From Terriglobia bacterium (GTDB taxonomy: Bacteria; Acidobacteriota; Terriglobia; Terriglobales; Acidobacteriaceae), in contig CAVWUW010000031.1 in the NCBI GenBank assembly GCA_963758275.1, forward strand, positions 183,745-247,744: a stretch of 64,000 nt of DNA, written 5' to 3'. Made by a program: the position numbers and the translations under genes. Positions 2-27,930 of this stretch are shown in pieces. The notes beneath the pieces were generated by a model. It saw only the letters and a list, made by a program, of their open reading frames with translations, made no database searches and was not told the DNA's origin. The stretch's first letter is position 1, and each line of letters opens with the position of its first letter.

Positions 2-2602
2 CAGGCCGATTTGGATTATTGGAAAAAGCAGTTGGAGGCCGCACCAGAGATTTTGGAATTGCCGGCAGATTATTCCCGGCCGGACAAACCGAAGTTCGAT
101 GGAGCCGGTGAATATTTCGAACTAAACCAAACTGTAGTTAAAGGGCTCAAGGGCCTGGGCAGGCAAGCGGGAGCAACATTTTATATGTCAATGCTGGCGG
201 CCTACAGTGTGGTGCTGCATCGCTATAGCGGGCAAGATGAGGTTTTGATTGGGACGCCGGCAGCAAACCGCGAATACGAAGAATTGCACGGACTGATTGG
301 GTTGTTCGTCAACATGCTGGTGATCCGAGTGAATTTGAGCGGGAACCCCTCATTTCCGGAGTTGCTGAAACGGGTGCGGGATACGGCATTGGAAGCCTAT
401 GTACATCAGACTCTGCCCTTTGAGCTTCTGGTGGAAAAACTCAGGCCGGAGCGCAACCTGAATAGAAATCCGCTGTTTCAGGTGGCTTTCAGCTTTGTGG
501 GCAGCACGGCCGATGCCGAGGAGCGTTCAGTATCCTGGCCGCCATTCACCGAATTAAATAATTTCACCTTCAAGTTTGATATGGGAGCTATTGTTTTTCA
601 GGACTCGTCACGCTGTCGAATAAACCTCGGCTATAACCCGGAACTGTTCAGCCGGGACACATGCACTCGTTTCAAACAGCATTTTCACAACTTGCTCGGC
701 GAGATCGTCGCCGACCCGCAGGCGGGAATATCAACCCTTCCCATGCTTCTGTCCGAAGAGCGGCAGATCACGTGTGACTGGCAGAACACCCAGACGGAAT
801 ATCCCCGAGAAAAACGAATCGAAGAGATCTTCCAGGCGCAGGTGGAAAAAGCACCCAATGCCCCAGCCTTGCTGTATCACTCGACGACATTTACTTATCA
901 GGAACTGGATGATGCTGCCGGCCGTGTTGGGCGATACTTGCGCCAACTGGGTGTTGGTGCCGAAACGGTAGTTGGCGTATGCATGGAGCGGTCCTGGCAA
1001 CTGGTAGTGTCTTTACTCGGGGTCTTGAAAGCGGGAGGGGCATATCTGCCGCTGGATCCAGGCTATCCGACGGCGCGATTGCAGTTCATGCTGGAGGACA
1101 GCAAAGCTAGGGTGGTCTTGATGCAAACGCCCCTGATGGACACCTTGCCTTGGCAGTCACTAGAGTGCTGCCGATTTGTAAGGTATGAAGACATAGTGGA
1201 AACAGCAGAAGGCTCGGCACCGCTTCATTCAACCCCGGACAACCTCGCCTACATCATTTATACGTCTGGATCCACCGGCGCGCCTAAGGGCATTGGAATT
1301 CCTCATCGTGCTGTAACTCGACTCGTATGCAATACAAATTATGTGGGGTCTGGGGCGAACGATCGGATTGCGCAGGCTTCCAATCCCTCTTTTGACGCGG
1401 CAACATTTGAGATTTGGGGGAGCCTGCTGAACGGCGGCTGTGTTGCAGGAGTAAGCAGGGAAGAATCGCTTACTCCGAAGTTACTGGCCTCTCGAATCCG
1501 AGAAAGCAAGATGACTACCATGTTTCTTACGACCGCTCTGTTCAATCAATTTGCGGCGAGCGACGAAGCAGACGCGTTGGGGGAGCTGAAGTACCTGCTG
1601 TTCGGCGGAGAGGCCGTGGATCCAAAGTGGGTTCAAGAAGTACTCAAGCATTTTCCACCGAGAAACCTGTTGCATGTGTATGGTCCCACCGAGAATACAA
1701 CCTTCTCTACATGGCGGCGGGTTCAGTCTGTGCCCTCTGGAAGCACAACCGTGTCCATTGGTGCGCCAATCGCGAACACGGAGATCTATGTCCTGGATAA
1801 GAATATGATGCATGTGGCTACCGGCGTGACAGGAGAACTTTACGTGGGAGGAGATGGACTGGCGAGAGGTTATGTAAACCGGCCGGAACTTACTGCTGAA
1901 AAATTTCTTCCGAACCCGTTCGGTCTTCGCGGCTCAGAGCGGCTGTACCGTACCGGCGACCTAGTGAAATACAGGAGTGACGGCAACATTGAGTTTATCG
2001 GGCGTGCGGACCAGCAGGTGAAGATTCGCGGTTTTCGAATTGAACCGGGTGAGGTCGAATCGGTTCTGCGAAAACACGCGAAAGTCAGAGACAGCATAGT
2101 ACTGGTGAAAGATTATGAAGGAGACAAACGCCTGATCGCTTACGCGGCGGTGGAAAAAGGGGCTGAGAGACGGGACCTGCGACAGTATCTGAAAGACCGA
2201 TTTCCGGACTACATGGTTCCCTCAAAGCTGGTGCTGCTGCAAGAGTTACCACTGACTGAAAACGGAAAGGTTGACCGGCAAAAGTTGATCGACGGAACTA
2301 CCACGGACGACGATGAGGAGCAGCAAGAACAGCAGTATGTCGCGCCACGTAATCAACTGGAACGAACGATTGCGGAGATATGGAGCGACATGCTGGGAAC
2401 CGAGAAAGTGGGGGTCTACGACAATATTTTCGACCTTGGCGGACATTCGTTGCTCCTCATGGCGATCCATGCGCGCATGAAAAGACAAGTACCGCATGCA
2501 GTCCACCTATCAGTAAAAGATTTGTTTCTTTATCCCACAATCGATTCTCTAGTCGACTTTATGGGCCAGGAAGAAAGTGAAAGCGCATTTCTTCAACGCT
2601 GA
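2..2602 (+). CDS. Non-ribosomal peptide synthetase, 5' end outside the window: (partial C)-A-T
   Basis: The reading frame is open to the window edge. It shows C-domain C-terminal motifs (DYWKKQL, LPADYSRP). A-domain cores are LAYIIYTSGSTGAPKG, YGPTE, YRTGDL, GRADQQVKIRGFRIE and NGKVDR. The carrier motif is FDLGGHSLL (Ser codon 2447-2449). Confidence 0.95.
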   Translation, partial: QADLDYWKKQLEAAPEILELPADYSRPDKPKFDGAGEYFELNQTVVKGLKGLGRQAGATFYMSMLAAYSVVLHRYSGQDEVLIGTPAANREYEELHGLIGLFVNMLVIRVNLSGNPSFPELLKRVRDTALEAYVHQTLPFELLVEKLRPERNLNRNPLFQVAFSFVGSTADAEERSVSWPPFTELNNFTFKFDMGAIVFQDSSRCRINLGYNPELFSRDTCTRFKQHFHNLLGEIVADPQAGISTLPMLLSEERQITCDWQNTQTEYPREKRIEEIFQAQVEKAPNAPALLYHSTTFTYQELDDAAGRVGRYLRQLGVGAETVVGVCMERSWQLVVSLLGVLKAGGAYLPLDPGYPTARLQFMLEDSKARVVLMQTPLMDTLPWQSLECCRFVRYEDIVETAEGSAPLHSTPDNLAYIIYTSGSTGAPKGIGIPHRAVTRLVCNTNYVGSGANDRIAQASNPSFDAATFEIWGSLLNGGCVAGVSREESLTPKLLASRIRESKMTTMFLTTALFNQFAASDEADALGELKYLLFGGEAVDPKWVQEVLKHFPPRNLLHVYGPTENTTFSTWRRVQSVPSGSTTVSIGAPIANTEIYVLDKNMMHVATGVTGELYVGGDGLARGYVNRPELTAEKFLPNPFGLRGSERLYRTGDLVKYRSDGNIEFIGRADQQVKIRGFRIEPGEVESVLRKHAKVRDSIVLVKDYEGDKRLIAYAAVEKGAERRDLRQYLKDRFPDYMVPSKLVLLQELPLTENGKVDRQKLIDGTTTDDDEEQQEQQYVAPRNQLERTIAEIWSDMLGTEKVGVYDNIFDLGGHSLLLMAIHARMKRQVPHAVHLSVKDLFLYPTIDSLVDFMGQEESESAFLQR

Positions 2603-2684
2603 GGCCTCACGGGTTTCCGTTCTACTGAGCCCAAGTAATTCAAGCTGGCAAACGGTTCTTTCGGGCGTACTCGACATCTAGGCT

Positions 2685-5600
2685 ATGGGAAATAATTCAA
2701 AAACAGAGCGGAATGCATCAGACGCAAAAGAGCAAAGCGCCCACGGGAGCCTTTCCTCGATAGCCCTACCCCGCCGTCCTGCTGGAGCACGAGTTCCCCT
2801 GTCATTCAGCCAAAGGCAACTGTGGTTTATTCAGCAAATGATACCGAACACTCCAGCCTACAACGTGCCTTGGGCGCTGAAGTTGGAGAGGGAGGTTGAT
2901 ATCACGGTCTTGCAGCGCGCGGCGAACGAGATCATCCGGCGACACGAGGCGTTGCGAACACGGTTTGGTGCGTCAGATGGGGAGCCGGTGCAGTTGATCG
3001 AGCCGGAGCTGCATATCACCATTGAACGAGAGGATCTGAGCGGCATTTCTGTCGAAGAGCGCCAGGGCATTCTGCGCAGAAGACTTGGGGAAGAAGGACG
3101 GAAACCATTCAAGCTGGAACGGCTACCCTTGCTCCGTATTCGCCTTTTCCAATTGGGTGGCGAGCAGGTGCTTCTCACAGTAGTTCATCACATCCTCTTC
3201 GACGGCTGGTCTCTTGAAATCTTTTACCGCGAACTTGAGGCGCTGTACACGGCTTATCGGCAAGGTGAAAGTTCTCCGCTTCCCGAGTTCTCCATCCAGT
3301 ACAGTGACTACGCTTATTGGCAAGCGGAGTCGTTAAGACAAGGTGAACTGGAAGAGGGCATCGAGTACTGGAAAAAGCAACTGACGGGAACCCCATGGAG
3401 TTTAGAACTGCCAGCGGATTATCCGCGACCCGTAACGCCGAGGTTCGAAGGTGCAAGTATTGACTTTGAGATAAGTGAACCAGTCACAAGATCGTTGAAA
3501 GAGTTGAGCCGCAAATCTGGTGTAACACTGTACATGACCCTCCTGGCGGCCTACGCCGTGTTGTTGCAACGATATACCCGCCAGGAACAGATACTGATTG
3601 GAACCCCTATCGCTAACCGCTCGTTGGAAGAGCTGCAGCGTCTGATCGGCTTCTTTGCCAACACGTTGGTGATGCGGGTGGACTTGAGAGGAAATGTCAG
3701 GTTCACGGAGCTGCTGAAGCGGGTCAGAGAAAGTGCATTGGGTGGATATGCCCATCAGGATGTGCCATTTGAGCTGCTGGTGGAGCGACTTAAGCCGGAA
3801 CGCAGCTTGAACCGCACCCCATTGTTCCAGACCATGTTTGTAATGCAGAGCAGTTCACATTTGAGTGGTGGGGGATTCTTAAGCGGATATGCGGTCAACA
3901 CGGACCTACCCGTTGCCAAATTCGATCTTTCACTTAGCATGAGAGAGCGACACGGGAAGTTGTCGGCAGAGTTTAATTACGACATCAGCCTGTTTGCCGC
4001 AGACACAATAAGAAGGCTTCAAAACAATTTCATTTTTCTTTTGGAAGAATTGTCCAAAGCCGGCCCGCTTCGTTTAAGTGATCTGACCTCTATGCTCTCG
4101 TCGGGAGAACGGGATGAGATCAGGCATTGGAACTCTACCGACGTTTGCTATGGAAGAGGAGAGCGCCTGCATGTTCTCTTCGAAAAGCAAGTTCAGGCCG
4201 CTCCGGAGCGGCTAGCGCTGGTTTGTGAACAGGGGAACCTGACATATCGTGAAGTCAATCGCCGTGCGAACCAACTTGCACATTACCTTCAGAAGCAGGG
4301 AGTCGGGCCAGAATTGTGCGTCGGCGTCTGCATGGAGCGATCATGGGAGATGGTGGTGGCACTTCTGGGAATTCTGAAAACGGGGGCTGCATATCTGCCC
4401 CTGGATCCGGAATATCCAACTGAGCGGCTGCACTGGATGCAGCACGATGCGCGCGTCAATGTGGTGCTGACACAAGAAAAGTTTTCTCACCGTCTCGACC
4501 GCAGCAAAGGAACCAGGGTGATCCCGCTGGACACGTCGTGGAGTTTTGTGTCGCAGGAACGGGACCACGACTGTTTGGCAAGCGTCAGTGGAGAAAACGT
4601 GGCTTATGTGATCTACACCTCCGGTTCCACCGGCAAGCCTAAAGGTGTAATGAACCGCCATCGCGGCATCTGCAACCGTCTTCTCTGGATGCAGCAAGCA
4701 TACCGACTCCATGAGAGCGACCGTATTCTTCAGAAGACGCCCTACAGCTTTGACGTTTCGGTGTGGGAATTCTTCTGGCCATTGATAGCCGGTGCCCGTC
4801 TTGTCATAGCAAGGCCCGGTGGTCATCGTGACAGCACATACTTGCGAGACGTCATTAAAAAGGAAGGGATCACTACAATTCACTTTGTGCCTTCCATGCT
4901 TAAGTCCATGCTGGAAGACGAAGGTTTGCGCGGCTGTCGAAGTCTCAGGAGCGTGATTTGCAGTGGAGAGGCCCTGGGCCTTGGCTTAAAAGAACAGTTT
5001 TACCGGCAATGCCAGGCTGGATTGCACAACTTGTATGGCCCCACAGAAGCTGCGGTTGATGTCACCTTCTGGGAATGTGAGCGGGAAACGACGCGTTCTG
5101 CCGTGCCTATCGGGAGGCCCATAAGCAATACGCAGATCTACCTGCTGGATCAGAATCTGATGGAAGTTCCGGTATTGGCAACCGCTGAGCTGTGCATCGG
5201 CGGCGAAGGTCTCTCAAGAGGCTATCTGAACAGACCGGATTTGACGGCAGAAAAATTCCTGCCCAATCCCTTTGGCGAGAAAGGTACCCGACTCTACCGC
5301 ACGGGCGACTTGGCCCGCTTTCTTAACGACGGCGCCGTCGAGTACCTGGGCCGCATGGATAATCAGGTGAAGGTCCGTGGCAATCGAATTGAACTTGGGG
5401 AAATCGAAGAGGTACTGAAGCAGCACGCGTTAGTTCAGGATGGCGCAGTCATAGCCCATGAAGAGACCGGCGGAGAGAAACGACTCATTGCCTACATAGC
5501 GACGAAAAAAGACGTCAGCGTGAGGGCGCAGGACCTGCGGGCCTATCTCAAAGATCGGCTTCCGGACTTCATGATACCGGGCGCCTTTGTATTTGTTGAG

Positions 5601-8600
5601 AAAATGCCACTGAGTTCAAACGGCAAGCTTGACCGCAAAGCCTTAACTCAACTCGAAGCTGCCCACTTGCAGGAGTCGCGGAGCTATATTGCCCCACGCA
5701 ACATACTCGAAGACAAAATTGCGCAGATATGGGCAAAGGTGTTGCAGGTCGAGCAAGTGGGCGTAGACGACCATTTTTTTGATCTTGGCGGCCACTCGTT
5801 GCGCTTGATGCAGGTCCACTCAGAACTCAAGCAGAAGCTGCAGATTGATATTCCCGTCATCGATCTATTCCGTGTTCCCACAGTATCAGCGCTTGCAAAC
5901 TACATAACCGCGGTTAAGGACGTTACAAAATCTGGTGAGCCTACGGCGAATTTTCGAACCCAAGCCGAAGATACTTCCATTGCTGTAATCGGCATGGCAG
6001 GGAGATTCCCGGGCGCCCGCAACATCGAGGAGTTCTGGGAAAATATCAAAAATGGAGTGGAATCAGTTTCATTCTTCTCTGATGAAGAACTTTCGGATGT
6101 GCCGGATGCCGTGCGGGGCGATCCAAACTTTGTAAAGGCCGCCGCAGTCCTGGAAGACGCTGACTTTTTCGATGCCGATTTCTTCGGGTTTCGACGTCGC
6201 GAAGCGGAAACAACGGACCCGCAGCAGCGGGTCTTTCTTGAATGCGCATGGGAAGTGCTGGAACGAGCAGGCTACGATTCAGAGCGCTATCCGGGAGCAA
6301 TCGGGGTGTTCGCCGGGATGGCCACAAGCAGCTATTGGTTCAATTTATGTAGAAATCCGGAAGTTCTGGAATCCGTGAACAGCTTTCAATTGACAATTGG
6401 CAATGACAAGGACCACCTGCCTCTACGGGTTTCCTATAAGCTGAACTTGAAAGGTCCGAGCATAAGCGTGCAGACCGCGTGCTCCAGTTCGCTGGTGGCG
6501 GTGCATTTGGCCTGCCAGAGCCTCCTGGATGGCGAATGCAAAATGGCCATGGCGGGTGGAGTTTCGATCAGGGCCGTACAAAAAACCGGCTATGTTTACC
6601 AGGAGGGTGGAATAAGCTCTCCTGATGGCCACTGTCGCGCATTTGATGCTGATGCCGCCGGCACGATATCGGGGAACGGAGCGGCAGTAGTGCTTCTTAA
6701 GAAGCTTAAGGATGCGATCGCCGACGGAGATCATATTCATGCGATCGTTGTGGGATCGGCTATTAATAATGATGGGGCATTCAAAATTGGGTATACGGCC
6801 CCCAGTATCGATGGCCAGGCCGATGTCATTGCGCGCGCCCAGGCCAGAGCAGGAGTTCCTGCCGATACCATTACCTATGTTGAAGCTCATGGAACGGCAA
6901 CCCCTCTGGGAGACCCAATTGAAGTGGCGGCGCTTACCCAGGCTTTCCGGTTGCAAACGAATAAGACACAATTCTGCGCCATCGGCTCAGTCAAAACTAA
7001 TATAGGCCACCTTGATGCAGCCGCCGGCATAGCCGGTTTTATCAAAGCGGTCTTGGCGCTTGAAAGCGGTTTGCTCCCGCCCAGCCTGAATTTCAGGAAG
7101 CCCAATCCGAAAATTGATTTCTGTGCGAGTCCCTTCTTCGTCAATTCGAGATTCCAGAAATGGGAATGCGCTTCCGGGCCGCGTCGGGCCGGGGTGAGCT
7201 CGTTCGGTATTGGCGGCACGAACGCTCACGCGGTTTTGGAAGAGGCTCCTCAGCAGGAACCCGACAACCGCGAGTCGCAACCGCAACTGTTGCTCCTTTC
7301 CTGCAGGAGTGACGCAGCTCTGCAAAAAACTACTCTCAAGTTAGCTGAGCATCTGAAAAGTCATCCGGAACAGTGCATCCTAGACGTGGCCTATACGTTG
7401 CAGGAGGGGCGCAGGGAATTCGCCTTCCGTCGGGCAATTCTTTGTCAAAGCAGTGCTGATGGCATAAGAGCAATGGAGTCTGGCGATACGCAGAGGATCA
7501 TCACTGGAAAGTCAGAAACAGCGTCTCTCCCAGTTTACTTCCTCTTCCCCGGCCAGGGCGCGCAGTATGTCAACATGACGCGTGGGCTATATGAATCCAT
7601 TCCTGTGTTTCGCCGGGAGGTGGACCGCTGTTCGGAAATTCTTCGGTTACAGCTGGGATTCCATCTGGAGACTCTGCTTTACCCTGGAGAAGGCAGCCCC
7701 GAAGATCTCGAAGAGAAAATGCGGCAGACGGCGAACGCGCAGCCTACTCTCTTTGTGATCGAGTATGCATTGGCATCCTTGTGGATGGAGTTGGGAATCC
7801 GGCCACAGGCGATGTTGGGCCATAGTCTGGGCGAGTATGTGGCTGCATGCATGGCGGGCGTGATGTCTCTGGAAGACGCTTTGCGGCTGGTAACCGTTCG
7901 TGGGCAGCTCATGCAAAACATGCCGCCAGGCGCAATGCTGACGGTTGCCATGCCACATCACAGGGTAGCCGAACTGTTGAGCAATCATAAAGATGTTGCT
8001 CTTGCGGCAGTCAACGCAGAGGAGTCATGCGTAGTCTCTGGATCCGAAGAAGCGATTGTCCGACTGGAAACACAACTCGTAGAGCAGGGTTTTGAACCGC
8101 AACGCCTCCGCACGTCGCATGCCTTCCACTCGCCAATGATGACGCCAGTGGCTGAGTCTCTCAGGCATGTGTTGACCGGGATCAAGTTCAAAAGCCCCTG
8201 CATCCCTTTTCTGTCGAACCTGACTGGCGGATGGATTACACCGGAACAAGCCTCCAGCGCAGAATATTGGATCAAACATCTGCTTCACACCGTGCGTTTT
8301 TCGGATAATCTGCGTCATTTGCTCAAGGAACCCGGCGGTACTTTGCTGGAAATGGGACCAGCCACTTTAACTGTCCTGGCCAAGAGATATCCTGAGCGAC
8401 GCTCGGAGACCAGGCTACTCGCGTCTATCAAATCGAGAGCAGAAAAGGAGTCTGAATACTTGTCATTCCTGCACTCCGTGGGAACATTGTGGGCTGATGG
8501 CAGGCAGCTTCTCTGGCACATTTTGCCGCGTCACGGGAAGTGCAAGCGGGTGATACTGCCTACCTATCCGTTTGAAAGGCAGCGATACAACGTTCCTATA

Positions 8601-8840: not shown

Positions 8841-8914
8841 TCCCTCAATACGTACTTTCCCAAGATCTCGAACGATCAATCACGCCGTCATGGTTGGCAA
8901 GGAGTTGCATCTGT

Positions 8915-12502: not shown

Positions 12503-12514
12503 GGAGCAATAATT

Positions 12515-13565
12515 ATGAGTCAGTCAGAAAGCGCCGTGCGGGTGCGTTCCCCGTTTACCGCCCGCCGCAAGTCTGTGGGCAGTTTTTCTGAATGGACCAG
12601 GAAGAGCTATCTCCAGTCAGAAGATGGCCCGGTAGTGATTGCGGCTGTTGATGGACCTTGACCTGATGGCGTGGACCCAGCAGAATACGTCGTCGCTTAA
12701 AGACATGATCGAAAAACATGGGGCTGTGCTGCTGCGTGGCTTTGCTGTGAAGACGGTTGAGGCCTTCCGCAACTTCGTGCTGGCGCTATCCCCCAACATG
12801 CTGGAATACAAGGAGCGTTCTTCGCCCCGTCATAAAGTCCAGGCGGACATTTACACTTCCACCGACTACCCCGCCCATCAACGCATTTTCTTTCACAATG
12901 AGAATTCATATCAGTTCATATGGCCGATGAAGATATGCTTTTTTTGTTCCCTGCCGGCAGAGCACGGCGGAGAAACGCCCATCGCCGATGTTCGGAGGGT
13001 TTATCGGCGGTTATCGCCTAAGACGATCCAACGCTTCGAAGAAAAGTGCTGCATGTACGTACGAAACTTTGATGAGGCCCTGGGTCTTTCCTGGCAGGAA
13101 GTATTTCAGACCAGCGACCGGCTTCAGGTGGACGGGTACTGTAAAGATAACGGCATTACCTGTGAGTGGAAAGAAAACAACGGATTGCGCACCCGCGCAA
13201 TCCGTCCAGCAGTTGCGGTTCATCCCAGGACCGGTGAACGGGTGTGGTTCAACCACGTTGCGTTTTTCCACATCTCCACCTTGGATGCGTCGATACGCGA
13301 CGGACTGCTGGCGGCCATGCCTGAATCCGACTTGCCTGCCAATAGCTATTACGGAGATGGCTCTTCCGTTGAAGAGGATGTGATCGAGGAAATTCGCTCC
13401 GCCTATCGTAGTGAATCCGTCAGCTTCCCCTGGCAAAAGGGTGACATCCTTGCTGTTGACAACATGCTTACCGCGCATTCCCGCAATCCGTTCGTGGGAG
13501 AAAGAAAAATCCTGGTCGGGATGGCCGAACCTTATTCACGCCGGCAAGACCTGGAAGCTCTCTGA
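12515..13565 (+). pseudogene. TauD/TfdA-family (SyrP-like) Fe(II)/2-oxoglutarate amino-acid beta-hydroxylase, with its frame broken by an apparent 1-nt insertion near 12656
   Basis: ATG 12515 has a strong SD (AAGGAG). It encodes MSQSES...SYLQSEDGPVVIAAVDGP and then stops at 12659. The +1 frame continues as (L)DLMAWTQQ...KHGAVLLRGF...YKERSSPR...IYTSTDYPA...FFHNENSY (His 12894, Glu 12900). That sequence is typical of the NRPS-associated TauD clade, including the N-terminal extension. Skipping the C at 12656 restores ...AAVDGLDLMAW.... The ORF track only reports 12639-13565. Confidence 0.8.
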
Positions 13566-13604
13566 GTCATTACTTATCCCTGCGGATCTTTTACCGGAGT
13601 TAGC

Positions 13605-16600: not shown

Positions 16601-18185
16601 CGGGGATTCCATCATCAGCATTCAGATTGTTAATCGAGCAAAACAGCTGGGGCTAGCCTTTACACCCAGGCAGCTATTCCATCACCGGACCATTGCTGAG
16701 CTTGCAGAAGTCGTCAAGACTGATTCGGACGCCGCTCCCATTCCAGCAAAGGTGCTCCAGAGTGACGTAAAGCTCACGCCAATACAGAGATGGTTCTTTG
16801 AGCAGAACTTTGCTTGCCCACACCATTGGAACCAGGCAATGCTCTTCGAGGCGCACGAAGAGATTGACGCTGCGCTGCTGGGAAAGGCATTGAGCGCGGT
16901 GTTGGAGCAGCATGATGCGCTGCGACTGCGGTTTGGGGCGACGGGGAGCATAAGGCCTTCATTGGTGGCAGAAGCTGGTGTCCCACACATTACCGTGCTG
17001 AACTTGACGCGGGTCGCGGTGGAACAGCATTCAGAACTTCTGGAAAAGTTTGCCGCGGATATCCAATCTGGACTCGACCTGTTCCAAGGACCCGTGATGC
17101 GGGTTGGATTGGTGCGAATGCATGGTGCGCGTGATCGAATACTATGGGTGGTTCATCACCTCTCCGTTGATGTTGTGTCCTGGGGCATCCTGCTTGCAGA
17201 TCTTACCGCGGCTTACCGCCAACTCAAGCAGGGGGCGGCAGTTCATCTTCATCCCAGGACTTCTTCTTTCCAGGAATGGTCGCTAAGGCTGCATCAACAC
17301 GCAGATTCTGAAGATATAAGACGGGAAGCGCATTATTGGCTTTCACCAGCTCGCCGCAATTGCGCAAAGCTTCCTGTTGATTTCCCCAAGGGTCAGAATC
17401 TTGAATCGTCCGCGCAAATCCTGTGGTGTTCGCTGAACAGCCAGGAAACCAGCGGTCTCATGCAGCAGGTTCCCAGGGCACATCACACCATGATCAACGA
17501 CGTGCTGCTAACTGCCCTGATGCAATCGTTCTATAACTGGACTAATGAGAGAAGTCTTACCCTGGATCTTGAGAACCACGGCCGCGAAGAGCTGTTCGAG
17601 GACGTGGACCTTTCCCGAACCGTCGGCTGGTTCACCTGCATCTTCCCAGTCACACTGGGCTTAGCTTCCCCTTATGACTGCGTGCAAAATCTTCGGGCCG
17701 TAAAAGAGCAGATCAGATCGATTTCAAACGGTGGGGTTGGCTACGGCCTGCTGCGGCACATCACGAACGACCCCGAGGTTCACAATGCGCTACAGCAACT
17801 ACCGCAGCCTGAGATCAATTTCAATTATCTGGGGCGGTCAGGGCAGAAGATAGATGATAAGCCGTTATTCGCGAGCTGTGACGGTGTGCTGGGCCCCTCG
17901 CGCAATCCATGTGCCCACCGGGCCTATCTTTTGGAGGTTACTGGCGGTGTAAACCGCCAGGGGGAACTCCGAATGGCTTTCATTTACAGTCGAAACCTTC
18001 ATCGAGAAACCTCAATCCAGAAGCTGGCCGATGGTTTTGTGGAAGCCCTCCGCGAAATCGTGCGCAGCTCTTCCGACCAACCTGTCGTCCCCTCCCTGGT
18101 GGATCTCTCTATGACCCAGCTCAACAACAGGGACCTGAACCGTCTAGTTGAAGAACTGAGCAGGAGCGAAGAAACCGGTGAATAA
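13605..18185 (+). CDS. NRPS: degenerate C-like (interface-type) domain - A(Asn-like) - T - E
   Basis: The N-terminal C-family fold (YRLSPQQQHLWRL...) has SKFCSDKAG in place of HHxxxDG (14031-14057). A cores are AYTIYTSGSTGQPKG, YGPTE and HGKVDKR. The carrier motif FFELGGDSI (Ser 16608-16610) is the form usually seen before an E domain. The E-domain motif HHLSVDVVSW lies at 17154-17183. Confidence 0.93.
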   Translation: MNTQVMGGYRLSPQQQHLWRLQETHLDYPHSVSAVLMFEEVLDAVRIQRALVKVIDRHEILRTVFRPLGALQFPVQVIRPDADVWLPAADSSEGVEASDWSLQLDKIYRDFRGRTWDVQNGPLIQARIVSLPASRQAVLIRLSKFCSDKAGLRNVILQMLQIYKGSTLHGPEQPPQYADVSEYLNEVLELEDTAVGRQFWNRWRAELLPPLRLATHPVSDDETDEGCLRWNLDFETVARVEELAAHTGTAVTDIVMAGWQVVLARSLRQEEFTLGIVCSGRRLEGLENTPGLFERTLPLPCRITREQPFKELVRHVARNTEQLAQWQDYFSYGAIGENTTAPIAFEYCALPPLPADDLTIAAFTIDESLYPHQLKLSCFWNVKSPLLQISYQHGALSERDVAALGDQLSALLLNAAASPSAPAGKLSTLSPAAKDFLLHQLNRTEVMYSSVPFTHARFELQARQSPAQPALVAGEMTLTYGELDERATRLADVLKSRGIGPESAVVVSMERCPELLISLLGILKSGGFYIPLDPGYPAERLAFVLRDSRAALVLSKAEWNSRFAASQVPILNLDDDWMREEVSGNTKAKLHPHNLAYTIYTSGSTGQPKGVAVSHAALANYLSWCEQKYDLAKGRGVIVHSPIGFDLTVTTLLAPLSAGQTIILVEGEDPTEGLARLLRRDAHLTLLKITPAHLQALSQMLDPKELSGAVDTVIIGGEALLSNHVGTWQVESPQTRLINEYGPTETTVGCSIYEMPRSSLTSGPVPIGKPIANAKLYVFDAEMQPLPIKSVGELYVGGVGLARGYLGQPALTAERFLPHPFSTSPGGRLYKTGDMAQVDADGTLHFLGRADDQIKLRGYRIELGEIEYILRQHPGVREAAVVLKDCGDQKQLVAYVALTKPVAVTKPGQPAIAGLQNFLLNKLPEYMVPTQMIVLDQLPLTFHGKVDKRSLPGPNLQSSNLQPKYVAPRNAKEQILADLWARALGLERVGVRDNFFELGGDSIISIQIVNRAKQLGLAFTPRQLFHHRTIAELAEVVKTDSDAAPIPAKVLQSDVKLTPIQRWFFEQNFACPHHWNQAMLFEAHEEIDAALLGKALSAVLEQHDALRLRFGATGSIRPSLVAEAGVPHITVLNLTRVAVEQHSELLEKFAADIQSGLDLFQGPVMRVGLVRMHGARDRILWVVHHLSVDVVSWGILLADLTAAYRQLKQGAAVHLHPRTSSFQEWSLRLHQHADSEDIRREAHYWLSPARRNCAKLPVDFPKGQNLESSAQILWCSLNSQETSGLMQQVPRAHHTMINDVLLTALMQSFYNWTNERSLTLDLENHGREELFEDVDLSRTVGWFTCIFPVTLGLASPYDCVQNLRAVKEQIRSISNGGVGYGLLRHITNDPEVHNALQQLPQPEINFNYLGRSGQKIDDKPLFASCDGVLGPSRNPCAHRAYLLEVTGGVNRQGELRMAFIYSRNLHRETSIQKLADGFVEALREIVRSSSDQPVVPSLVDLSMTQLNNRDLNRLVEELSRSEETGE
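13620..14900 (+). other. C-family domain with a degenerate active-site motif (candidate interface domain)
   Basis: The length and N-terminal motifs are those of a condensation domain, but both catalytic His residues are absent (SKFCSDKAG). Confidence 0.7.
16750..18110 (+). other. Epimerisation domain
   Basis: Shows TPIQRWFFEQ, HHLSVDVVSW, and a preceding GGDSI carrier motif. The next protein starts with a DCL-like YPLVPLQRGLLF. Confidence 0.85.
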
Positions 18186-21100
18186 TTTGTGGAATGTTGA
18201 GGGGGTTTATCCCCTGGTTCCTCTCCAGAGAGGGCTGCTGTTTAACAGTCTCTATTCTCCGGGTTCGGGTGTCTATGGCCAGCAATTGCGGATGACCATT
18301 TCAGGTCCGCTTGATCCCGCAATAATGAGAAAGGCATGGGAAAAGATTATTGAGCGGCATTCCAGCCTGCGCACCTCCTTTATATGGGAGCGCCAGGAGG
18401 AGCCTGTCCAGGCGGTAAGGCGGCGCGTAAAGCTGCCCTGGCAGGAATTGGATTGGCGGCCGTTCAGTGGAACAGAACAGCGCGAGAAGCTGGAGGCTTT
18501 CCTGCGTGCAGACAGGGAAAAGGGCTTTGATTTCACCCGTGGCCCGCTGCTGCGAATTACATTGATACGAACTGGCGATCAAGCTTACGAACTGACGGCG
18601 ACCAGTCATCACATCATTCTCGACGGCTGGTCAAATTTCATTGTGGTCAAGGAGTTGATATCTCTTGTCAGGAGCCTCCATGAAGACAAGGAAAATGACG
18701 GATTGGCCGGACGGCCGCCAGCCTATCGAGATTACATACGGTGGGTTCAACAGCAGAATCCCGCCTTGGCCGAGTCTTTTTGGCGGAAGTCCCTCCAGGG
18801 CATCACTGAGCCGACCCTTATCCCAGGCATGCAGCCGGGCCATGTCCACGGTGACGCAACCCGGCAACGAAGCTGCGAGTTGCGGCTTGAACCTCAGGTA
18901 AGGGAACGATTGCAGGAGTTTGCCACAACCTGCGGTATCACGCTTACCACCGTGCTGGCCGGGGCCTGGGCTTTGCTCCTGGGTTGTTGCAACAATCGGG
19001 AAGATATAATTTTCGGGCTGACAGTCCACGGTCGTCCACTCTCCCTCCCCGGTGTGCAGGAGATGGTCGGGCTTTTCATCAACACCCTGCCTTTTCGAAC
19101 CGCCGTTAATCCCGAGTCGAATTTGTCCGACTGGCTGCAAGATTTCCAGTTCCACTTGCTGGAATTACAAGAGCACGCTTACAGCGACCTGGTCAAGGTG
19201 CATCAGTGGAGTGACATAGGTCCTGGACGGCCGTTGTTTGAAAGTATCTTCGTCTTTGACAATTACCCTAAGGAACGCGCCGCTTCAGCCGATACAAATA
19301 AATTCTTATTTCAGAATGTTCATTCCATTGACACCGGCAGCTTTCCCCTTGCCATTATTGCCGCTGCGGATGAAGATCTATGTCTTGGAATGACCTATGA
19401 CAGCGCCCGAATCGATGAGCTTTATGCAAAACGCCTTCTTTACCGCTACGGCGCAGTTTTAGAAAGAATCCAGAAGTCGCCTGTTCAGAAGCTGTGGGAG
19501 ATAACAGCGCTCTCTCACGCTGAATCTGCACAACTTGCAGGTGAGAACAATAAGACACATCGTGATTTCGGAAGGCCGATTTGCTTGCACCAGATGTTCG
19601 AAAGGCAATCCGCCGCGTCACCGGAAGCCATTGCGCTTACTTTGGGAGAGCAACAGTGGACCTATCGAGACGTGAACGAACGCGCCAACCGGCTTGCCCT
19701 CCACTTGCGCAGGAATGGGGTACGGCCCGAACATCGGGTGGGCGTTCACCTGGAATCTTCGGCAGACACAGTGCTGGCAATTCTGGCAGTTCTTAAAGCC
19801 GGCGGAGCGTACGTGCCACTGGATGCAGGATATCCGCAGGAAATCCTCAATCACATGGTTTCCGATGCCGGCGTGCAAATAGTTATTACTGAGAAAAAAC
19901 TTTCTGCAAACCTGCCCTCGGGAGTGGCCGGGCTCGTGGAACTCGGCACGGAGGAGAATGAAATTGACGTCGAGTCCGGCGACAACTCGAGCGCCGACGT
20001 CTCCCCTGCTAATCTGGCTTACGTAATCTACACCTCCGGATCTACGGGGTTACCCAAAGGCGTAGCTGTTACGCACCGCAATGCTTTCAGCGTCATTCAA
20101 TGGTTTATTCACGCCTTCTCCGTGAGCTCTTCAGACAGAATGCTGCTCGGGGTTTCGACTTCTTTCGATCCTTCAGTGGCTCAAATATTCTCGGCCTTGT
20201 GTTCTGGCGCAGAACTGGTGTGCATGAAACCCGCCCCTCATGATGCACCTTACATCCTGAGCATTATTGAAAAGAAACAAGTGACCGTGATGGATTTTCC
20301 GCCATCAGTGCTTTCTCTTCTGCTCAGCGACGCAAAGCCCGAACAGTTCAGGTCCGTGCGGCGTGTGTTGGCGGGTGGCGAGCCTACGCCGTCAAATCTG
20401 CTGTCAAGGCTCTTTTCAAAGCTTCCGGTTCCTTTCTCTAACCTTTACGGCCCTACAGAAACATGCATCAATGCCAGTTGCTGGACATGCACGGCAGATT
20501 CCTTTGCTCCGCCGGTTTCAATTGGCCGCACTATTGCGAATGCGAAGATCGGTTTGCTGGATCGGTGTCTTCAACCCGTGCCAGTTGGCGTTCAGGGTGA
20601 AATTTTCATTGGTGGCGACGGTGTGTCTCGCGGATATCTCAACCGCCCGGAACTGACTGCGGAGAAGTTCATACCCGATCCCTATTGCAGCACACGCGGA
20701 GGCCGTCTGTACCGAACTGGAGATTTGGCCCGTTACCTCGATGATGGGAATATCGAATTTCTCGGTCGTGTGGATTCTCAGGTCAAGATCCGCGGAGTGA
20801 GGATCGAATTGGGGCAAGTGGAGGCTGCGGCCAGAGAACATTCGGCTGTGCGTGAAGCTGCCATCGTGGTGCGAGAGAACCGCGACAATGAACCCCTGCT
20901 TGCAGCCTACGTATCTACTCGTCAACCACTTCTCGATCGTGAACTCAAAGCATTTCTCAAGACCAGGCTTGCTCAGCCCATGGTTCCGTCGATCATCATG
21001 TTTCTGGACCAGTTGCCCAGGCTGCCTAACGGCAAGGTCAACCAGAAGCTCCTGCCTGCCATCGATCTGGAATCCGGCGGCAAGACACAAAGGGCTCCGC

Positions 21101-24100
21101 GTAATGAATGGGAAGGATTGCTGGCTACAATCTGGGCCAATGTGTTAAGCCGTGACAGAGTGAGCGTTGATGACAACTTCTTTGCGCTGGGGGGGCATTC
21201 CCTTACAGCCATTCGCATTGCGTCAAAGGTGCAGGAGGCGTTTGGAATAGAGTTCCCGATTCGGTTGCTATTCGAAAAGCCAACTATTGCGGAGCTGTGC
21301 GAAGAAGTTCAGGCATGTGCACAGAGAGTTCCCACTGGGGGCTTCGCTGCTGTGTCACCACGGTCGCACGATAGCAGAGTTCCCATGTCCTTTGCGCAGC
21401 AAAGGCTTTGGTTCCTGGATCGCCTTGCTCCAGCTGAGCCTTTCTATAACCTGCCGGAAGCTTTACGACTTCGCGGAACTCTGGACCTTGCGGCTTTAGA
21501 CGCAGCTCTGGCGGAAGTATTGAGGCGGCATTCGGTCCTGCGCACAACGTTTGGCGTGGAAGAGGGCGAACTGGTGCAGGTCATATCGGATGGCGACACT
21601 CCCAGGCTTCAGGTCGTCGATTTGGCCGAACTCAAACCGGAGCAGCGGGACACAGAAGCAAAACGGCTAGCTGAACAGGAGGCAAGACGTCCATTCGACA
21701 TGGAACAAGGACCGTTGCTGCGTAGTGAGCTTCTCAAACTGGATAATGAAGATCATGTCCTCCTGCTGACTTTTCATCACATCGTCGCAGACGGTTGGTC
21801 CGTCAGCATTGTTGGGAAGGAACTTTCCGCGCTGTATGGGGCATTTCATCACGGAGCCCCAAGCCCTTTGGATGAGTTGCCGATCCAGTATGCCGACTTC
21901 GCAGTTTGGCAGCAGGAACGGTTCACAGGAGCCATGCTGGACCAGAAGCTGGATTATTGGAAAAAGCAACTTGCGGGTGCCTCTGGCGTGCTGGAAATAC
22001 AGACTGACCTGCCCCGGCCCGCGACCCAGAGCTTCCAGGGAGCCAGTTGCGAATTTTACCTTTCCGTGGAAACAGCGCGGCTGTTGAAGCGCCTGGGACT
22101 TCAAGAGTCGGCTACATCATTCATGATGCTGCTCGCTGCGTTCAACGTTCTGTTGTACCGGTACAGCGGACAGGCTGACATCCTGGTTGGGGCGCCTGTT
22201 TCCGGTCGAGATTACCCGGAACTCGAGAACCTGGTTGGCTTATTCGTGAACACGATTGTCCTGCGCACTGATCTCTCAGGCGAGCCGGGCTTTCGCGAGT
22301 TGTTAAGCAGGGTGCGCTCCACGACGATCGGTGCCTACTCCAATCAGGAAATACCTTTCGAAAAAGTAATCGAAGAGGTAAATCCCGCACGGGACCTCAG
22401 CCGGTCTCCACTGTTTCAGGTAATGTTCAGTTTCCAGCAGGGAGGCGCGCAAGCTGCGCGAGATTTCGGGAACCTCCAGATGAGCCCCTTCGGTGTTAAT
22501 GCTGGAACGTCAAAGTTTGATTTGGAACTTCTGATCACCGAAACCGATCAGGGTTTCGACGGCATTTTGGAATACAACACAGACTTGTTTCTGCCGGAGA
22601 CCATCGCAGCTATGGTCCGACATTTCCGGAACATCCTGGAACAGGTTGCACGCCATCCTGATTGTCCTGTCTCCCGCTTATGTCTTCTCGATGAGAAGGA
22701 ACGCCGGGAAATCACAGACCATTTTAGCGCCGGCCCAACTAGAGAGCTGCCGAAACTCTGTTTCCATCAGCTTTTTGAATCGCAGGCCGAAAAGACTCCT
22801 GATGATCCGGCGGTCATTGCGGAAGATGGTTCATTGACATACCGTGAGTTGAGCGCCAAGGCCAATTCGGCTGCCCATGCATTGCTGGAAAAAGGCCTGA
22901 CCCGTGAATCCATTGTCGCGGTGCTGTCTGATCGAGGATCAACCCTGCTTTGTTCCATGCTGGGAATCTGGAAGGCGGGGTGCGCCTACTTGCCCCTTGA
23001 TCCCCGGTATCCGGCCAGGCGGCTGGCGCAGATGCTGGAGCAAGCACGCGTGGAGACGGTGATTGTAAGTCCGGCATGGAAGGAAACATTGCTGCAGGCC
23101 ATCGCCGAAGCGCAAAGAAGGCTAAGCATAAACGTTCTCGACAGCGAGATATTGCTGGCTGACGCGGCAAGAGACAATCCTGTTCTGGATTGTGTTCCCG
23201 AAGACCTCGCCTACGTGATCTTTACCTCGGGATCAACGGGCATGCCCAAGGGCGCTATGGTTGAACACAAGGGTATGTTGAATCACTTGTTCGCCAAGGT
23301 GGAAGACCTAAACTTGAGGGCAAAAGATGTAGTGGCGCAGACAGCGTCACAGTGCTTTGACATATCTATCTGGCAATTCCTGTCGGCGTTGATGGTTGGC
23401 GGACGGACTTGCGTTTGGCCTGATGCAATCGCATACAATCCGGCACGCTTGCTGGAAGAGCTCGAAAAAGCGGAAGTTTCGATCCTTGAAGTGGTGCCTT
23501 CACTCTTGCGGCTCATATTGGATGAGGTCGACCGTGCGCCGCAGCAGTACTCGTTGCGCTTATTGCGATGGCTGATACCAACGGGCGAAGCCTTGCCGGC
23601 GGAATTGGTTCGCAGGTGGCTCGAACACTATCCTGCTATTCCTATGGTGAATGCTTACGGTCCCACGGAATGCTCTGACGATGTGACGCATTGCCCCATC
23701 TATGCTGGCCCGCCCATGCATGCGACCTCCGTTCCCATCGGGAGGCCTGTCCGCAACATGTCTCTCCATGTTTTGGACGCCCACATGCAGCTTCTGCCGG
23801 TGGGCGTGCCCGGAGAACTATTTATCAGCGGAGCTGGTGTAGGACGAGGTTATATACACAATCCTGAAACAACGGTCCTGGCGTTTTGTCCCAATCCAAT
23901 TTCTGCCGATGCAAATCAGGTGCTCTATCGTACGGGGGACCGGGTCCGGTTTTTGCGCGATGGCAAACTGGATTTTCTTGGACGAGTAGATCACCAGGTA
24001 AAAGTGCGCGGGTTCAGAATCGAATTGGGAGAGACAGAATTCAGGCTGAGGAAGCATCCGGGTGTGCGAGATTGTGCCGTGGTTGACACAAAAGACGCCG

Positions 24101-25398
24101 AGAACAACACCCAACTTGTTGCTTATGTAGTGTTGGACGAACAGTCGCCCCCTTCGGTCGAAGAACTGCGCAAGTTCCTGAAGCTCAGTGTTCCCGAATA
24201 CATGGTTCCTTCTCTGATCCTGGTTTTAAAGGCGTTGCCTCTGACTGCTTCCGGCAAACTGGACCGCAAGGCGCTGCCGAAACCGGATCTCGACATGGTT
24301 GCCCGATCGCCATTTGCCGCGCCCCAAACCCAGATTGAGCGGCGCCTCGCGCGCATCTGGGAAAGCGTGCTACACATCAGTTCAAGTGGCATTCATGACA
24401 ACTTTTTCAACCTTGGCGGCCATTCCATACTGGCTTTGCGCCTTATGGGAGAAATTCAGAATAGATTTGGACGCAAACTGCCGCTCACTACATTGTTTCA
24501 GCACGGAACCATCAAAGAACTGGCAGCCATACTGGAAGATACGTTCTCGCAAGCGCCCTCTTCACCATTGATTACAATGCAGTCTTCGGGCACTAACCCT
24601 CCCATCTTCTTTGTTCACGTCGGCAGCGGAGAAGTGATGTGCTATCTCGACCTGGTTCGTCACCTTGGCAGGAACCAGCCATTCTACGGATTGCAGGATC
24701 CGAATCTGTACTCAGACTCCGTAGTAGAGATGTCGCTTGAAAAAAGGGCTGCTCTGTACCTGGACGCCGTACGTTCAGAACAGCCTCGAGGCCCGTATTT
24801 CCTGGGCGGCTGGTCGTTTGGCGGCCTGACTGCCTTTGAAATGGCCAGGCAGCTTCGCGCGCGCGGAGAAACGGTGGGGCTGCTGGCGCTGCTTGACACA
24901 GGTTCGCCTGATTTCCTACGCCAAAAGAGTGATCCTGACGATGACGCCGCCCTGCTCGGTATTATCGCCAGGGAGCTTAATGTGCGGGTTCGCGATGCAG
25001 ATCTGCGCCGGCTAAGCCTTGAGGAAAAATTCCAGTTTGTGGCTGAGCGGATGAAAGACGTGGGCCTTCACTGGGTGGATTCCGAAAGCTTCCTGGCCCG
25101 CCAACTGGCCATTTTCAAATCAAGAAACCGGGTAATTAACCAATATTATCCATCGCCTTACGATGGGACGATTACTTTCTTTCGCGCCAGCCGGGAGTAC
25201 GTTGAGGATCCGTCTGGACCCGAGATTACCCGCGATCCCACCAGGGGTTTCGAAGCACTAACAACGCAGCCGATTGATCTGCATATCATTCCTGGAAATC
25301 ACCACCAGATAGCCCACGAACCGGGTGTGCAAGCGCTTGCCGCGGCGTTATCCGGATCTATGGACAAAGCGTTGCGGGCGTTTGACCTGCAACAGTAA
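18178..25398 (+). CDS. NRPS termination protein: C(DCL-like)-A-T-C(LCL-like)-A(Dab/Dap-like)-T-TE
   Basis: The GTG start overlaps the stop of the preceding gene (GTGAATAA). C motifs are HHIILDGWS (18607) and HHIVADGWS (21775). A cores are AYVIYTSGSTGLPKG and AYVIFTSGSTGMPKG. Carrier motifs are FFALGGHSL (Ser 21199) and FFNLGGHSI (Ser 24424). The TE shows GGWSFGG (Ser 24814-24816). Confidence 0.95.
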   Translation: MNNLWNVEGVYPLVPLQRGLLFNSLYSPGSGVYGQQLRMTISGPLDPAIMRKAWEKIIERHSSLRTSFIWERQEEPVQAVRRRVKLPWQELDWRPFSGTEQREKLEAFLRADREKGFDFTRGPLLRITLIRTGDQAYELTATSHHIILDGWSNFIVVKELISLVRSLHEDKENDGLAGRPPAYRDYIRWVQQQNPALAESFWRKSLQGITEPTLIPGMQPGHVHGDATRQRSCELRLEPQVRERLQEFATTCGITLTTVLAGAWALLLGCCNNREDIIFGLTVHGRPLSLPGVQEMVGLFINTLPFRTAVNPESNLSDWLQDFQFHLLELQEHAYSDLVKVHQWSDIGPGRPLFESIFVFDNYPKERAASADTNKFLFQNVHSIDTGSFPLAIIAAADEDLCLGMTYDSARIDELYAKRLLYRYGAVLERIQKSPVQKLWEITALSHAESAQLAGENNKTHRDFGRPICLHQMFERQSAASPEAIALTLGEQQWTYRDVNERANRLALHLRRNGVRPEHRVGVHLESSADTVLAILAVLKAGGAYVPLDAGYPQEILNHMVSDAGVQIVITEKKLSANLPSGVAGLVELGTEENEIDVESGDNSSADVSPANLAYVIYTSGSTGLPKGVAVTHRNAFSVIQWFIHAFSVSSSDRMLLGVSTSFDPSVAQIFSALCSGAELVCMKPAPHDAPYILSIIEKKQVTVMDFPPSVLSLLLSDAKPEQFRSVRRVLAGGEPTPSNLLSRLFSKLPVPFSNLYGPTETCINASCWTCTADSFAPPVSIGRTIANAKIGLLDRCLQPVPVGVQGEIFIGGDGVSRGYLNRPELTAEKFIPDPYCSTRGGRLYRTGDLARYLDDGNIEFLGRVDSQVKIRGVRIELGQVEAAAREHSAVREAAIVVRENRDNEPLLAAYVSTRQPLLDRELKAFLKTRLAQPMVPSIIMFLDQLPRLPNGKVNQKLLPAIDLESGGKTQRAPRNEWEGLLATIWANVLSRDRVSVDDNFFALGGHSLTAIRIASKVQEAFGIEFPIRLLFEKPTIAELCEEVQACAQRVPTGGFAAVSPRSHDSRVPMSFAQQRLWFLDRLAPAEPFYNLPEALRLRGTLDLAALDAALAEVLRRHSVLRTTFGVEEGELVQVISDGDTPRLQVVDLAELKPEQRDTEAKRLAEQEARRPFDMEQGPLLRSELLKLDNEDHVLLLTFHHIVADGWSVSIVGKELSALYGAFHHGAPSPLDELPIQYADFAVWQQERFTGAMLDQKLDYWKKQLAGASGVLEIQTDLPRPATQSFQGASCEFYLSVETARLLKRLGLQESATSFMMLLAAFNVLLYRYSGQADILVGAPVSGRDYPELENLVGLFVNTIVLRTDLSGEPGFRELLSRVRSTTIGAYSNQEIPFEKVIEEVNPARDLSRSPLFQVMFSFQQGGAQAARDFGNLQMSPFGVNAGTSKFDLELLITETDQGFDGILEYNTDLFLPETIAAMVRHFRNILEQVARHPDCPVSRLCLLDEKERREITDHFSAGPTRELPKLCFHQLFESQAEKTPDDPAVIAEDGSLTYRELSAKANSAAHALLEKGLTRESIVAVLSDRGSTLLCSMLGIWKAGCAYLPLDPRYPARRLAQMLEQARVETVIVSPAWKETLLQAIAEAQRRLSINVLDSEILLADAARDNPVLDCVPEDLAYVIFTSGSTGMPKGAMVEHKGMLNHLFAKVEDLNLRAKDVVAQTASQCFDISIWQFLSALMVGGRTCVWPDAIAYNPARLLEELEKAEVSILEVVPSLLRLILDEVDRAPQQYSLRLLRWLIPTGEALPAELVRRWLEHYPAIPMVNAYGPTECSDDVTHCPIYAGPPMHATSVPIGRPVRNMSLHVLDAHMQLLPVGVPGELFISGAGVGRGYIHNPETTVLAFCPNPISADANQVLYRTGDRVRFLRDGKLDFLGRVDHQVKVRGFRIELGETEFRLRKHPGVRDCAVVDTKDAENNTQLVAYVVLDEQSPPSVEELRKFLKLSVPEYMVPSLILVLKALPLTASGKLDRKALPKPDLDMVARSPFAAPQTQIERRLARIWESVLHISSSGIHDNFFNLGGHSILALRLMGEIQNRFGRKLPLTTLFQHGTIKELAAILEDTFSQAPSSPLITMQSSGTNPPIFFVHVGSGEVMCYLDLVRHLGRNQPFYGLQDPNLYSDSVVEMSLEKRAALYLDAVRSEQPRGPYFLGGWSFGGLTAFEMARQLRARGETVGLLALLDTGSPDFLRQKSDPDDDAALLGIIARELNVRVRDADLRRLSLEEKFQFVAERMKDVGLHWVDSESFLARQLAIFKSRNRVINQYYPSPYDGTITFFRASREYVEDPSGPEITRDPTRGFEALTTQPIDLHIIPGNHHQIAHEPGVQALAAALSGSMDKALRAFDLQQ
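24590..25395 (+). other. Type I thioesterase domain (chain release or cyclisation)
   Basis: Shows PIFFVHVGSGEV, GWSFGG (a GxSxG motif) and a C-terminal GNHHQI region. Confidence 0.85.
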
Positions 25399-26822: not shown

Positions 26823-27056
26823 ATGCACGACGAACAGGAAGATAAAACTATTTATAAGGTAGTTGTAAACCACGAAGAACAGTATTCCATCTGGCCGGCG
26901 CACCGCGAGAACGCGCTCGGATGGAGAGATGAAGGAAAAGTGGGCCCGAAAGCCGAATGTCTCGCTCATATCAAAGAGATATGGACTGACATGAGACCGC
27001 TCAGTCTGCGCAAGACCATGGATAACGCGCGTCCCGTGGGAACTGGAAACTCATAA
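26823..27056 (+). CDS. MbtH-like protein
   Basis: 77 aa with the signature [26 protein letters not shown]...[15 protein letters not shown]. An AGGAGG SD precedes the start. Confidence 0.95.
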
Positions 27057-27850: not shown

Positions 27851-27930
27851 GCTCGGCTGCAGCAGGCAAATCAGTCCTTCTCACACATTCAGGAAAGGCC
27901 ATTGCCGTCTTGCTGCCGATTAGACTAATC

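Follow-up and report, generated by a model that had tools for sequence, protein, structure and literature searches.

Which amino acids are loaded by the five adenylation (A) domains, A1 to A5, encoded in a 64,000-nt stretch of a Terriglobia bacterium genome (assembly GCA_963758275.1, contig CAVWUW010000031.1, here C31, positions 183,745 to 247,744; hereafter the window), and what product may be predicted from them? The window carries the 3' half of an orphan 11-module nonribosomal peptide synthetase (NRPS) with one ketosynthase-acyltransferase (KS-AT)/acyl carrier protein (ACP)-aminotransferase step, in an Acidobacteriota genome. A1, A2 and A3 are predicted to load Ile, Ser and Asn, the terminal A5 is predicted to load L-2,3-diaminopropionate (Dap), and A4, which has a rare and conserved code, is a candidate loader of halogenated Trp (halo-Trp). 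The probability of this overall explanation is put at about 0.7. All of the substrate assignments are predictions from sequence, genomic context, phylogeny and published code matches.

The substrate codes were extracted using MAFFT L-INS-i and hmmalign, with GrsA-PheA as the reference (PDB 1amu_A residues 184-528, matching the PheA segment at 100%; the chain index equals GrsA numbering, with Asp235 at 235). The ten reference positions read DAWTIAAICK. Five codes read by hand in a first-pass annotation were all reproduced by both methods, and their codons fell inside the regions given there. These are DAFFLGVTFK for A1 (first bases of codons 235 and 517 at window positions 1394 and 2267, respectively), DVWHISLVDK for A2 (4752 and 5625), DLTKIGEVGK for A3 (15540 and 16437), DPADLGLINK for A4 (20167 and 21034) and DIWEITADDK for A5 (23359 and 24256). 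A naive pairwise local alignment opens a gap after GPTE, and positions 330/331 are then shifted in A1, A3 and A5; the ungapped register, which is conventional and was the choice of the first-pass annotation, was recovered by both multiple alignments. The domains lie on the + strand at 830..2269 (A1, in a module truncated at its 5' end by the window), 4179..5627 (A2), 14976..16439 (A3), 19597..21036 (A4) and 22765..24258 (A5), and all five have the features of NRPS adenylation domains of the ANL superfamily, namely Pfam AMP-binding and AMP-binding_C matches and motifs A3 (TSGSTGxPKG), A5 (NxYGPTE), A7 (YRTGD), A8 and the A10 Lys. The six A domains encoded upstream of the window gave the codes DAWQFGLIDK, DPLWLGGTFK, DVWHISLIDK, DALWLGGTFK, DFWNIGMVHK and DAFWLGGTFK.

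The earlier readings of A1 as branched aliphatic, A2 as Ser and A3 as Asn were borne out. The exact A1 code is found in published lines, in Planktothrix cyanopeptolin OciB-A5/OciC-A7 and in the Ile domains of aeruginosin/suomilide synthesis, where it loads Ile with minor Val, though these lines are cyanobacterial and their products unrelated. The A2 code is an exact published Ser code, and that of A3 is published as Asn. The exact code matches to characterised lines thus settle Ile, Ser and Asn as the predicted substrates of A1, A2 and A3, respectively. An epimerisation (E) domain with motifs E1-E7 follows A3 and its thiolation (T) domain (16758..18077, + strand), found as the second Condensation-family match in the protein (residues 1052-1491) and including the sequences PIQRWF, HHLSVD, ENHGRE, RTVGWFT and FNYLG. 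As this set of motifs is complete, epimerisation of Asn to D-Asn is predicted. The gene for a TauD/SyrP-like Fe(II)/2-oxoglutarate-dependent oxygenase (12639..13565, + strand; Pfam TauD 4.9e-45) adjoins the Asn module. It does so also in an orthologous soil cluster (84% identity) identified in a metagenome scan as L119 (WNGQ01000003.1; L197 in JGI sample 3300012357), and in a Pyrinomonadaceae relative designated L012 (62%). The Asn unit is therefore likely to be beta-hydroxylated by the adjoining oxygenase, and beta-hydroxy-D-Asn may reasonably be expected at this position.

The A5 code includes Asp at code positions 8 and 9 (330/331), Glu at position 4 (278) and Trp at position 3 (239), and so fits the definition of mode-3 diamino-acid A domains, in which position 4 may be Glu or Gln (PMC12042044). 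The first-pass annotation had A5 activating a short diamino acid, which stands, but its label of a 2,4-diaminobutyrate (Dab)-type code is misleading, as DIWELTADDK, one residue off the A5 code, specifies Dab in PvdL and Dap in the chitinopeptins. The Dab code cited there is real, and was read directly from the PvdL chains 9up2/9lcp. Given that the PvdL product is Glu-D-Tyr-Dab, the PvdL domain with the Glu/Asp/Asp pocket is the Dab domain. In the chitinopeptins, the Dap residues (verified by NMR and Marfey analysis) correspond to A domains with 'DiWeLtaDK' codes, and sbnA/B genes are present in the cluster (PMC9248904); DIWELTADDK was read twice in the C. niastensis chitinopeptin homologue. 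Since the same code is found in Dab and Dap modules, the code alone cannot separate the two substrates. In the crystal structure of SulM-A3 from sulfazecin synthesis, L-Dap is bound with Asp8/Asp9 forming a salt bridge to the beta-amine; the code is DVWEMNADD (re-read here from PDB 9n1u), and the authors mention homologues with Ile at code position 2. A5 would have a comparable pocket made up of Glu278 and Asp330/Asp331, in which the SulM-A3-like Asp pair would clamp the side-chain amine.

The adjoining supply gene (SbnAB or a diaminobutyrate (DABA) transaminase) is a better predictor of Dap versus Dab than the code. SbnA, the pyridoxal phosphate-dependent enzyme of L-Dap synthesis (27910..28926, + strand), scores 413.6 bits against the TIGR03945 equivalog (cut-off 349.95), and SbnB, the NAD-dependent dehydrogenase of the same pathway (28905..29969, + strand), scores 382.4 bits against the TIGR03944 equivalog (cut-off 326.9). 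The two genes, which overlap at 28905-28926 and have the characteristics of an SbnA/SbnB L-Dap synthase pair, are ~3.7 kb downstream of A5, and the pair is kept in the ortholog (77% and 67% identity, respectively). L-Dap for A5 would come from the SbnA/SbnB encoded in the same operon. SbnB is present in a single copy in the genome and is rare in the phylum, being found in 6 of the 401 genomes searched. The genome also encodes two DABA transaminases, on contigs C7 and C12 with none on C31, and in both cases a different A domain, whose code is of cationic type (DVSEVSAIDK on C7 and DVEIMGAIVK on C12), is located nearby.

Mode-3 codes were present in seven of nine SbnAB-containing NRPS loci besides this cluster and its ortholog, and a code like that of A4 in none of them. 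SbnAB and a mode-3 code occur together in L112, L168 and L176, and in L166, which also has a mode-3 code, the search gave no SbnB match and just one distant SbnA-like gene (37% identity). In L041, L112, L168 and L176, no non-hydrophobic domain other than the mode-3 one is a candidate for Dap. The maximum-likelihood tree built from mode-3 domains places PvdL in a clade (99/98 support) with domains that have a DABA transaminase (assigned by PRK06938, about 757 bits) adjacent or within ~8 kb. A5 is not a member of the PvdL clade but falls, in a group without resolved branching, among domains linked to SbnAB from Stigonema (Cyanobacteria), Desulfobacterales and Archangium (Myxococcota), and thus shows neither mark of a PvdL-type Dab domain, which are placement in the PvdL clade and a transaminase in the cluster. 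The presence of SbnA/SbnB in the operon, the nearest relatives, and the lack of a transaminase in the cluster therefore favour Dap over Dab, and from this context and phylogeny A5 most probably loads L-Dap.

Several observations weigh against this assignment. The A5 code is identical to that of the PvdL Dab domain at 9 of 10 positions, the A5 pocket segment scores 212 bits against PvdL, its best PDB match, versus 185 bits against SulM-A3, and no pocket residue separates Dap-linked from Dab-linked mode-3 domains among the ~20 sequences compared. PheA positions 263 and 345, both outside the pocket, were the only discriminating columns found, and these were not considered meaningful. The two transaminases encoded elsewhere in the genome could also provide Dab in trans. 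Hence, A5 could load Dab, which is unlikely given that both transaminases are on other contigs beside A domains of cationic type and that A5 is not in the transaminase-linked clade. An extended version, in which A5 loads L-2,4-diaminobutyrate made in trans and A4 takes the SbnAB-made Dap, would give the acidic residue in the A4 pocket, Asp278, a role in binding the beta-amine. It is slightly less probable still, as mode-3 codes are common in the nine SbnAB loci and A4-like codes absent from them, and the deep A4 pocket (Ala239, Gly301) is a poor fit for a 3-carbon amino acid.

Further loci were observed during these comparisons. On contig C12, the lone A domain with DVEIMGAIVK, a code with Glu at position 3 (C12:24068), is ~4 kb from the DABA transaminase gene (C12:28401-29633), and an MbtH gene is found at C12:12239. 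The C12:12239-29633 locus could direct synthesis of a cationic homopolymer (poly-Dab-like) or include another Dab-using synthetase. C7 includes a second NRPS cluster (C7:85628-129920) with nine A domains, of which that with DVSEVSAIDK is of the Orn/Dab mode-2 type, and the DABA transaminase there is apparently split over two frames (128693-129799 and 129753-129920). An exception among SbnAB loci is L032 (Pyrinomonadaceae metagenome-assembled genome (MAG), JBASRE010000053.1:1-26785), where SbnA, TauD and SbnB flank an NRPS in which the detectable A domains have the codes DLFNNALTYK (Ala-type, twice) and DAFWLGGTFK and none of mode-3 type.

The A4 code, DPADLGLINK, had been reported to match nothing, and this was borne out. 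Among ~1,390 A domains drawn from related loci, database matches, metagenome loci and this genome (~860 of which came from HMMER/word-indexed searches ranked by summed score and served as a code sample only), no code with an assigned substrate matched at 9 or more of 10 positions, and the best non-orthologous code was DAEDLGLINK (8/10), for which no substrate is assigned. A literature search for DPADLGLINK and its parts gave no matches. The core motifs of A4 are intact. Of the ~1,200 domains aligned with it over the pocket segment, none outside the ortholog exceeds 41.5% identity there. In the orthologous soil cluster, the ACP-aminotransferase-condensation (C) protein (N7) is 77% identical to that in the window, the C-A-T-E protein (N8) 65%, and the C-A-T-C-A-T-thioesterase (TE) protein (N9) 72%. 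The ortholog has DIWEVTADDK for A5, and its A4 domain, 70% identical overall, has a code identical to that of A4, which indicates that the unusual pocket represents a real, selected specificity. By BLAST, the A4 scaffold is nearest to Ser/Gln-type domains. As compared with the Gln code DAWQFGLIDK, Gly301, Leu322 and Ile330 are kept, Trp239 is replaced by Ala, and Gln/Asp at 278/331 are replaced by Asp/Asn. Ala239 in place of the pocket-floor Trp, together with Gly301, speaks for a pocket that is deep and not small. The small polar or cationic substrate suggested in the first-pass annotation is only one option.

A connection that had not been drawn is to a gene for a flavin-dependent tryptophan 5/6-halogenase of the PyrH/SttH/Tar14 type (31762..33366, + strand; Pfam Trp_halogenase 2.6e-144), the last gene of the conserved cluster. 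The 534-aa product aligns over its full length (residues 6-518) at 603 bits to 5HY5, 601 bits to 6NSD and 574 bits to PyrH (2WET), and is related at ~600 bits to the free-Trp halogenases SttH, Tar14, Th-Hal and PyrH. This full-length similarity and a gene directly upstream for a flavin reductase, the halogenase partner (31146..31685, + strand; Pfam Flavin_Reduct), identify it as a free-L-Trp halogenase, predicted to act at position 5 or 6. Beyond SbnB, the ortholog keeps a DUF4097 gene, the flavin reductase (68-72% identical and syntenic) and the halogenase (83.5% identity). Synteny ends right after the halogenase (window 33367 onwards versus L197:1-7600), which therefore defines the right-hand boundary of the cluster. 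Past this point, the ortholog has genes, among them one for a Na/H exchanger, with counterparts in this genome on contigs C2, C8 and C12.

As the free-Trp halogenase is conserved and an aromatic code is absent from all 11 A domains, A4 is by elimination the only candidate loader of halo-Trp, and halo-Trp becomes the leading candidate for A4. That A4 loads halo-Trp or Trp is proposed from these sequence data with low confidence. More tentative still is the suggestion that DPADLGLINK is an undescribed code for 5- or 6-halotryptophan that has arisen on a Ser/Gln-type scaffold. Replacement of Trp239 by Ala would remove the pocket floor, making room for the benzo ring, and the Asp278/Asn331 pair would hold the indole NH. 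Counted in bonds from C-alpha, the indole NH is as far out as the Gln amide.

Against the assignment of halo-Trp are the position of the halogenase gene, which belongs to a separate transcription unit past a gene on the opposite strand, and the failure to find a similar code in any known halo-Trp A domain, the codes of speirobactin, which were the ones compared, being different. Two other Acidobacteriota halogenase homologues (61% identity) are not beside NRPS genes, and Asp278 would also suit a cationic side chain. In the relative with Gly and Ser at the A4 and A5 positions, no halogenase match was found in the MAG, the completeness of which is unknown.

A4 might instead load an ordinary cationic amino acid (Orn, Arg, Lys or Dab) via Asp278/Asn331, with the halogenase/reductase pair being a neighbour that does not feed the line. 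An acidic residue at 278 and a small one at 239 are seen in the 'mode 2' codes for Orn/Dab, and the nearest codes seen were DAEDLGLINK and DMENLGLIN-. The Stachelhaus Orn(1) code is DMENLGLINK (7/10 to A4), and Arg-type codes with Ala239-Asp278 also count for a cationic residue, as do the halogenase homologues that lack an NRPS linkage. However, position 331 is Asn where mode 2 has Asp, the Glu239 of mode 1 is absent, the scaffold is nearest to Ser/Gln-type and not to Orn/Lys/Arg-type domains, and a halogenase conserved at 83.5% at the cluster edge would be left without a consumer. A cationic substrate is accordingly a serious, if somewhat less probable, rival to halo-Trp, and it is about as probable that A4 loads something other than a cationic residue, halo-Trp or Trp. 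In the closest related cluster, L012, a Gly module (DILQFGLIWK) occupies the position of A4, and the L-G-L-I core (299, 301, 322 and 330) that A4 has in common with Gly codes, as well as its Ser/Gln-like scaffold, would be consistent with a small neutral residue (Gly, Ala or Ser). Yet the bulky Gly-code fillers Leu239, Gln278 and Trp331 are Ala, Asp and Asn in A4, and a code kept strictly unchanged in the ortholog, at 70% domain identity, points to selection for a specific pocket. The idea that A4 descends from the L012 Gly domain was also rejected, as BLAST places A4 nearest to Ser/Gln-type domains and no specific kinship with that Gly domain was seen. A small neutral substrate is thus improbable, and halo-Trp is retained as the leading, if tentative, candidate for A4.

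From left to right, the Pfam order in the window is a 5'-truncated C-A-T, C-A-T-KS-AT, ACP-aminotransferase-C, the TauD-family oxygenase, C-A-T-E, and C-A-T-C-A-T-TE, followed 3' by genes for an MFS exporter, a type II thioesterase, a PALP enzyme and an OCD-family enzyme. In the whole-genome contigs, four further NRPS genes are upstream of the window (A-T-C-A-T-C, A-T-C-A-T-C, A-T-C and (C)-A-T), for a total of 11 A domains and one polyketide synthase (PKS)/aminotransferase step. The KS-AT and ACP-aminotransferase-C segment extends over 5976..12502 (+ strand; Pfam ketoacyl-synt, Acyl_transf_1, PP-binding, Aminotran_3 and Condensation). Here, the Ser-terminated chain would be extended by malonate and the beta-keto group converted to a beta-amine. 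The TE domain is at 24601..25335 (+ strand; Pfam Thioesterase), with a Ser nucleophile in GWSFG. The chain is predicted to be Gln-Val-Ser-Val-Thr-Val-Ile-Ser-(malonate-extended, beta-aminated)-D-Asn(OH?)-X-Dap, with X the A4 residue, and would be released by the Ser-type TE. An MbtH-like protein gene is located at 26826..26978 (+ strand; PF03621, 74.2 bits; C31:210570-210722), and is called as 77 aa in the contig of a 99%-identical strain variant found by word-indexed search.

Other features of the cluster and genome were seen. In the protein of the Asn module, the N-terminal C-like domain (window 13605-14900) has SKFCSDKAG in place of the HHxxxDG catalytic motif, and is preceded by another C domain, apparently intact, with which the ACP-aminotransferase-C protein ends. 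Directly upstream of the first NRPS gene (C31:155646-163985) are genes for a NusG-family protein (possibly a LoaP-like antiterminator), an FAD monooxygenase, a MacB/FtsX permease, a PD40 beta-propeller protein and an aspartyl-protease/PDZ protein. At C10:321458-327932, three consecutive A domains gave codes that start with Glu rather than Asp235 and end without the A10 Lys (EALWVVTGAE twice and EVLWIVTGAE once); these may reflect misalignment or domains that do not activate alpha-amino acids.

No close relative of the cluster was found among 185,579 species genomes, the best match being 45% in a Pyrinomonadaceae MAG, and a literature search found no compound tied to such a cluster. The cluster is an orphan NRPS-PKS of known domain types. 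To our knowledge, no structurally defined nonribosomal peptide is on record from a free-living Acidobacteriota lineage, and the product prediction made here for an orphan Acidobacteriota line is testable. If the halo-Trp assignment is correct, the product would be a halogenated, Dap-terminated, beta-amino-extended dodecapeptide. Whichever substrate is loaded by A4, it would be a new entry for the training sets used in specificity prediction. DIWE(L/I/V)TADDK, for its part, is routinely read as 'Dab', yet it is common to verified Dab (PvdL) and Dap (chitinopeptin) modules.

The systems nearest to the A5 module each resemble it in part. SulM A3 of the sulfazecin synthetase (PDB 9N1U/9N1V) is also in a terminal C-A-T-TE module, has Glu278 and the Asp-Asp pair at 330/331 that clamps the beta-amine, and uses Dap from SbnA/SbnB homologues (SulG/SulH) encoded in its cluster, but its code (DVWEMNADDK) agrees with that of A5 at only 7 of 10 positions and it belongs to a different subclade of the tree. 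The SulM TE has a Gln-Cys-Asn nucleophile motif, and a sulfotransferase is needed for formation of the beta-lactam. Monobactam-type release from the terminal Dap module was considered for the cluster in the window and rejected, as the TE nucleophile is Ser (GGWSFGG) and no sulfotransferase was seen among the annotated cluster genes. The PvdL Dab domain of pyoverdine synthesis (PDB 9UP2, 9LCO-9LCQ) is closer in code (9/10), but its Dab is made by the transaminase PvdH, whereas the A5 cluster carries SbnAB. The Dap modules of the Chitinophaga chitinopeptins (PMC9248904) have the DIWELTADDK-type code, verified L-Dap and sbnA/sbnB in the cluster, although they are part of a Bacteroidota lipodepsipeptide line and the domains are ~45-47% identical to A5. 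The nonopeptin cluster of Nonomuraea (PMC12728651) comes from an actinomycete and has 7 modules without a PKS/aminotransferase step, and Cl-Trp is C-terminal in the product, forming a diketopiperazine with Dap. Nevertheless, it similarly includes genes for an Asn 3-hydroxylase, SbnA/B-like Dap enzymes, and a Trp 5-halogenase with a flavin reductase, and its product contains OH-Asn, Dap and 5-Cl-Trp, a precedent that counts in favour of halo-Trp for A4.

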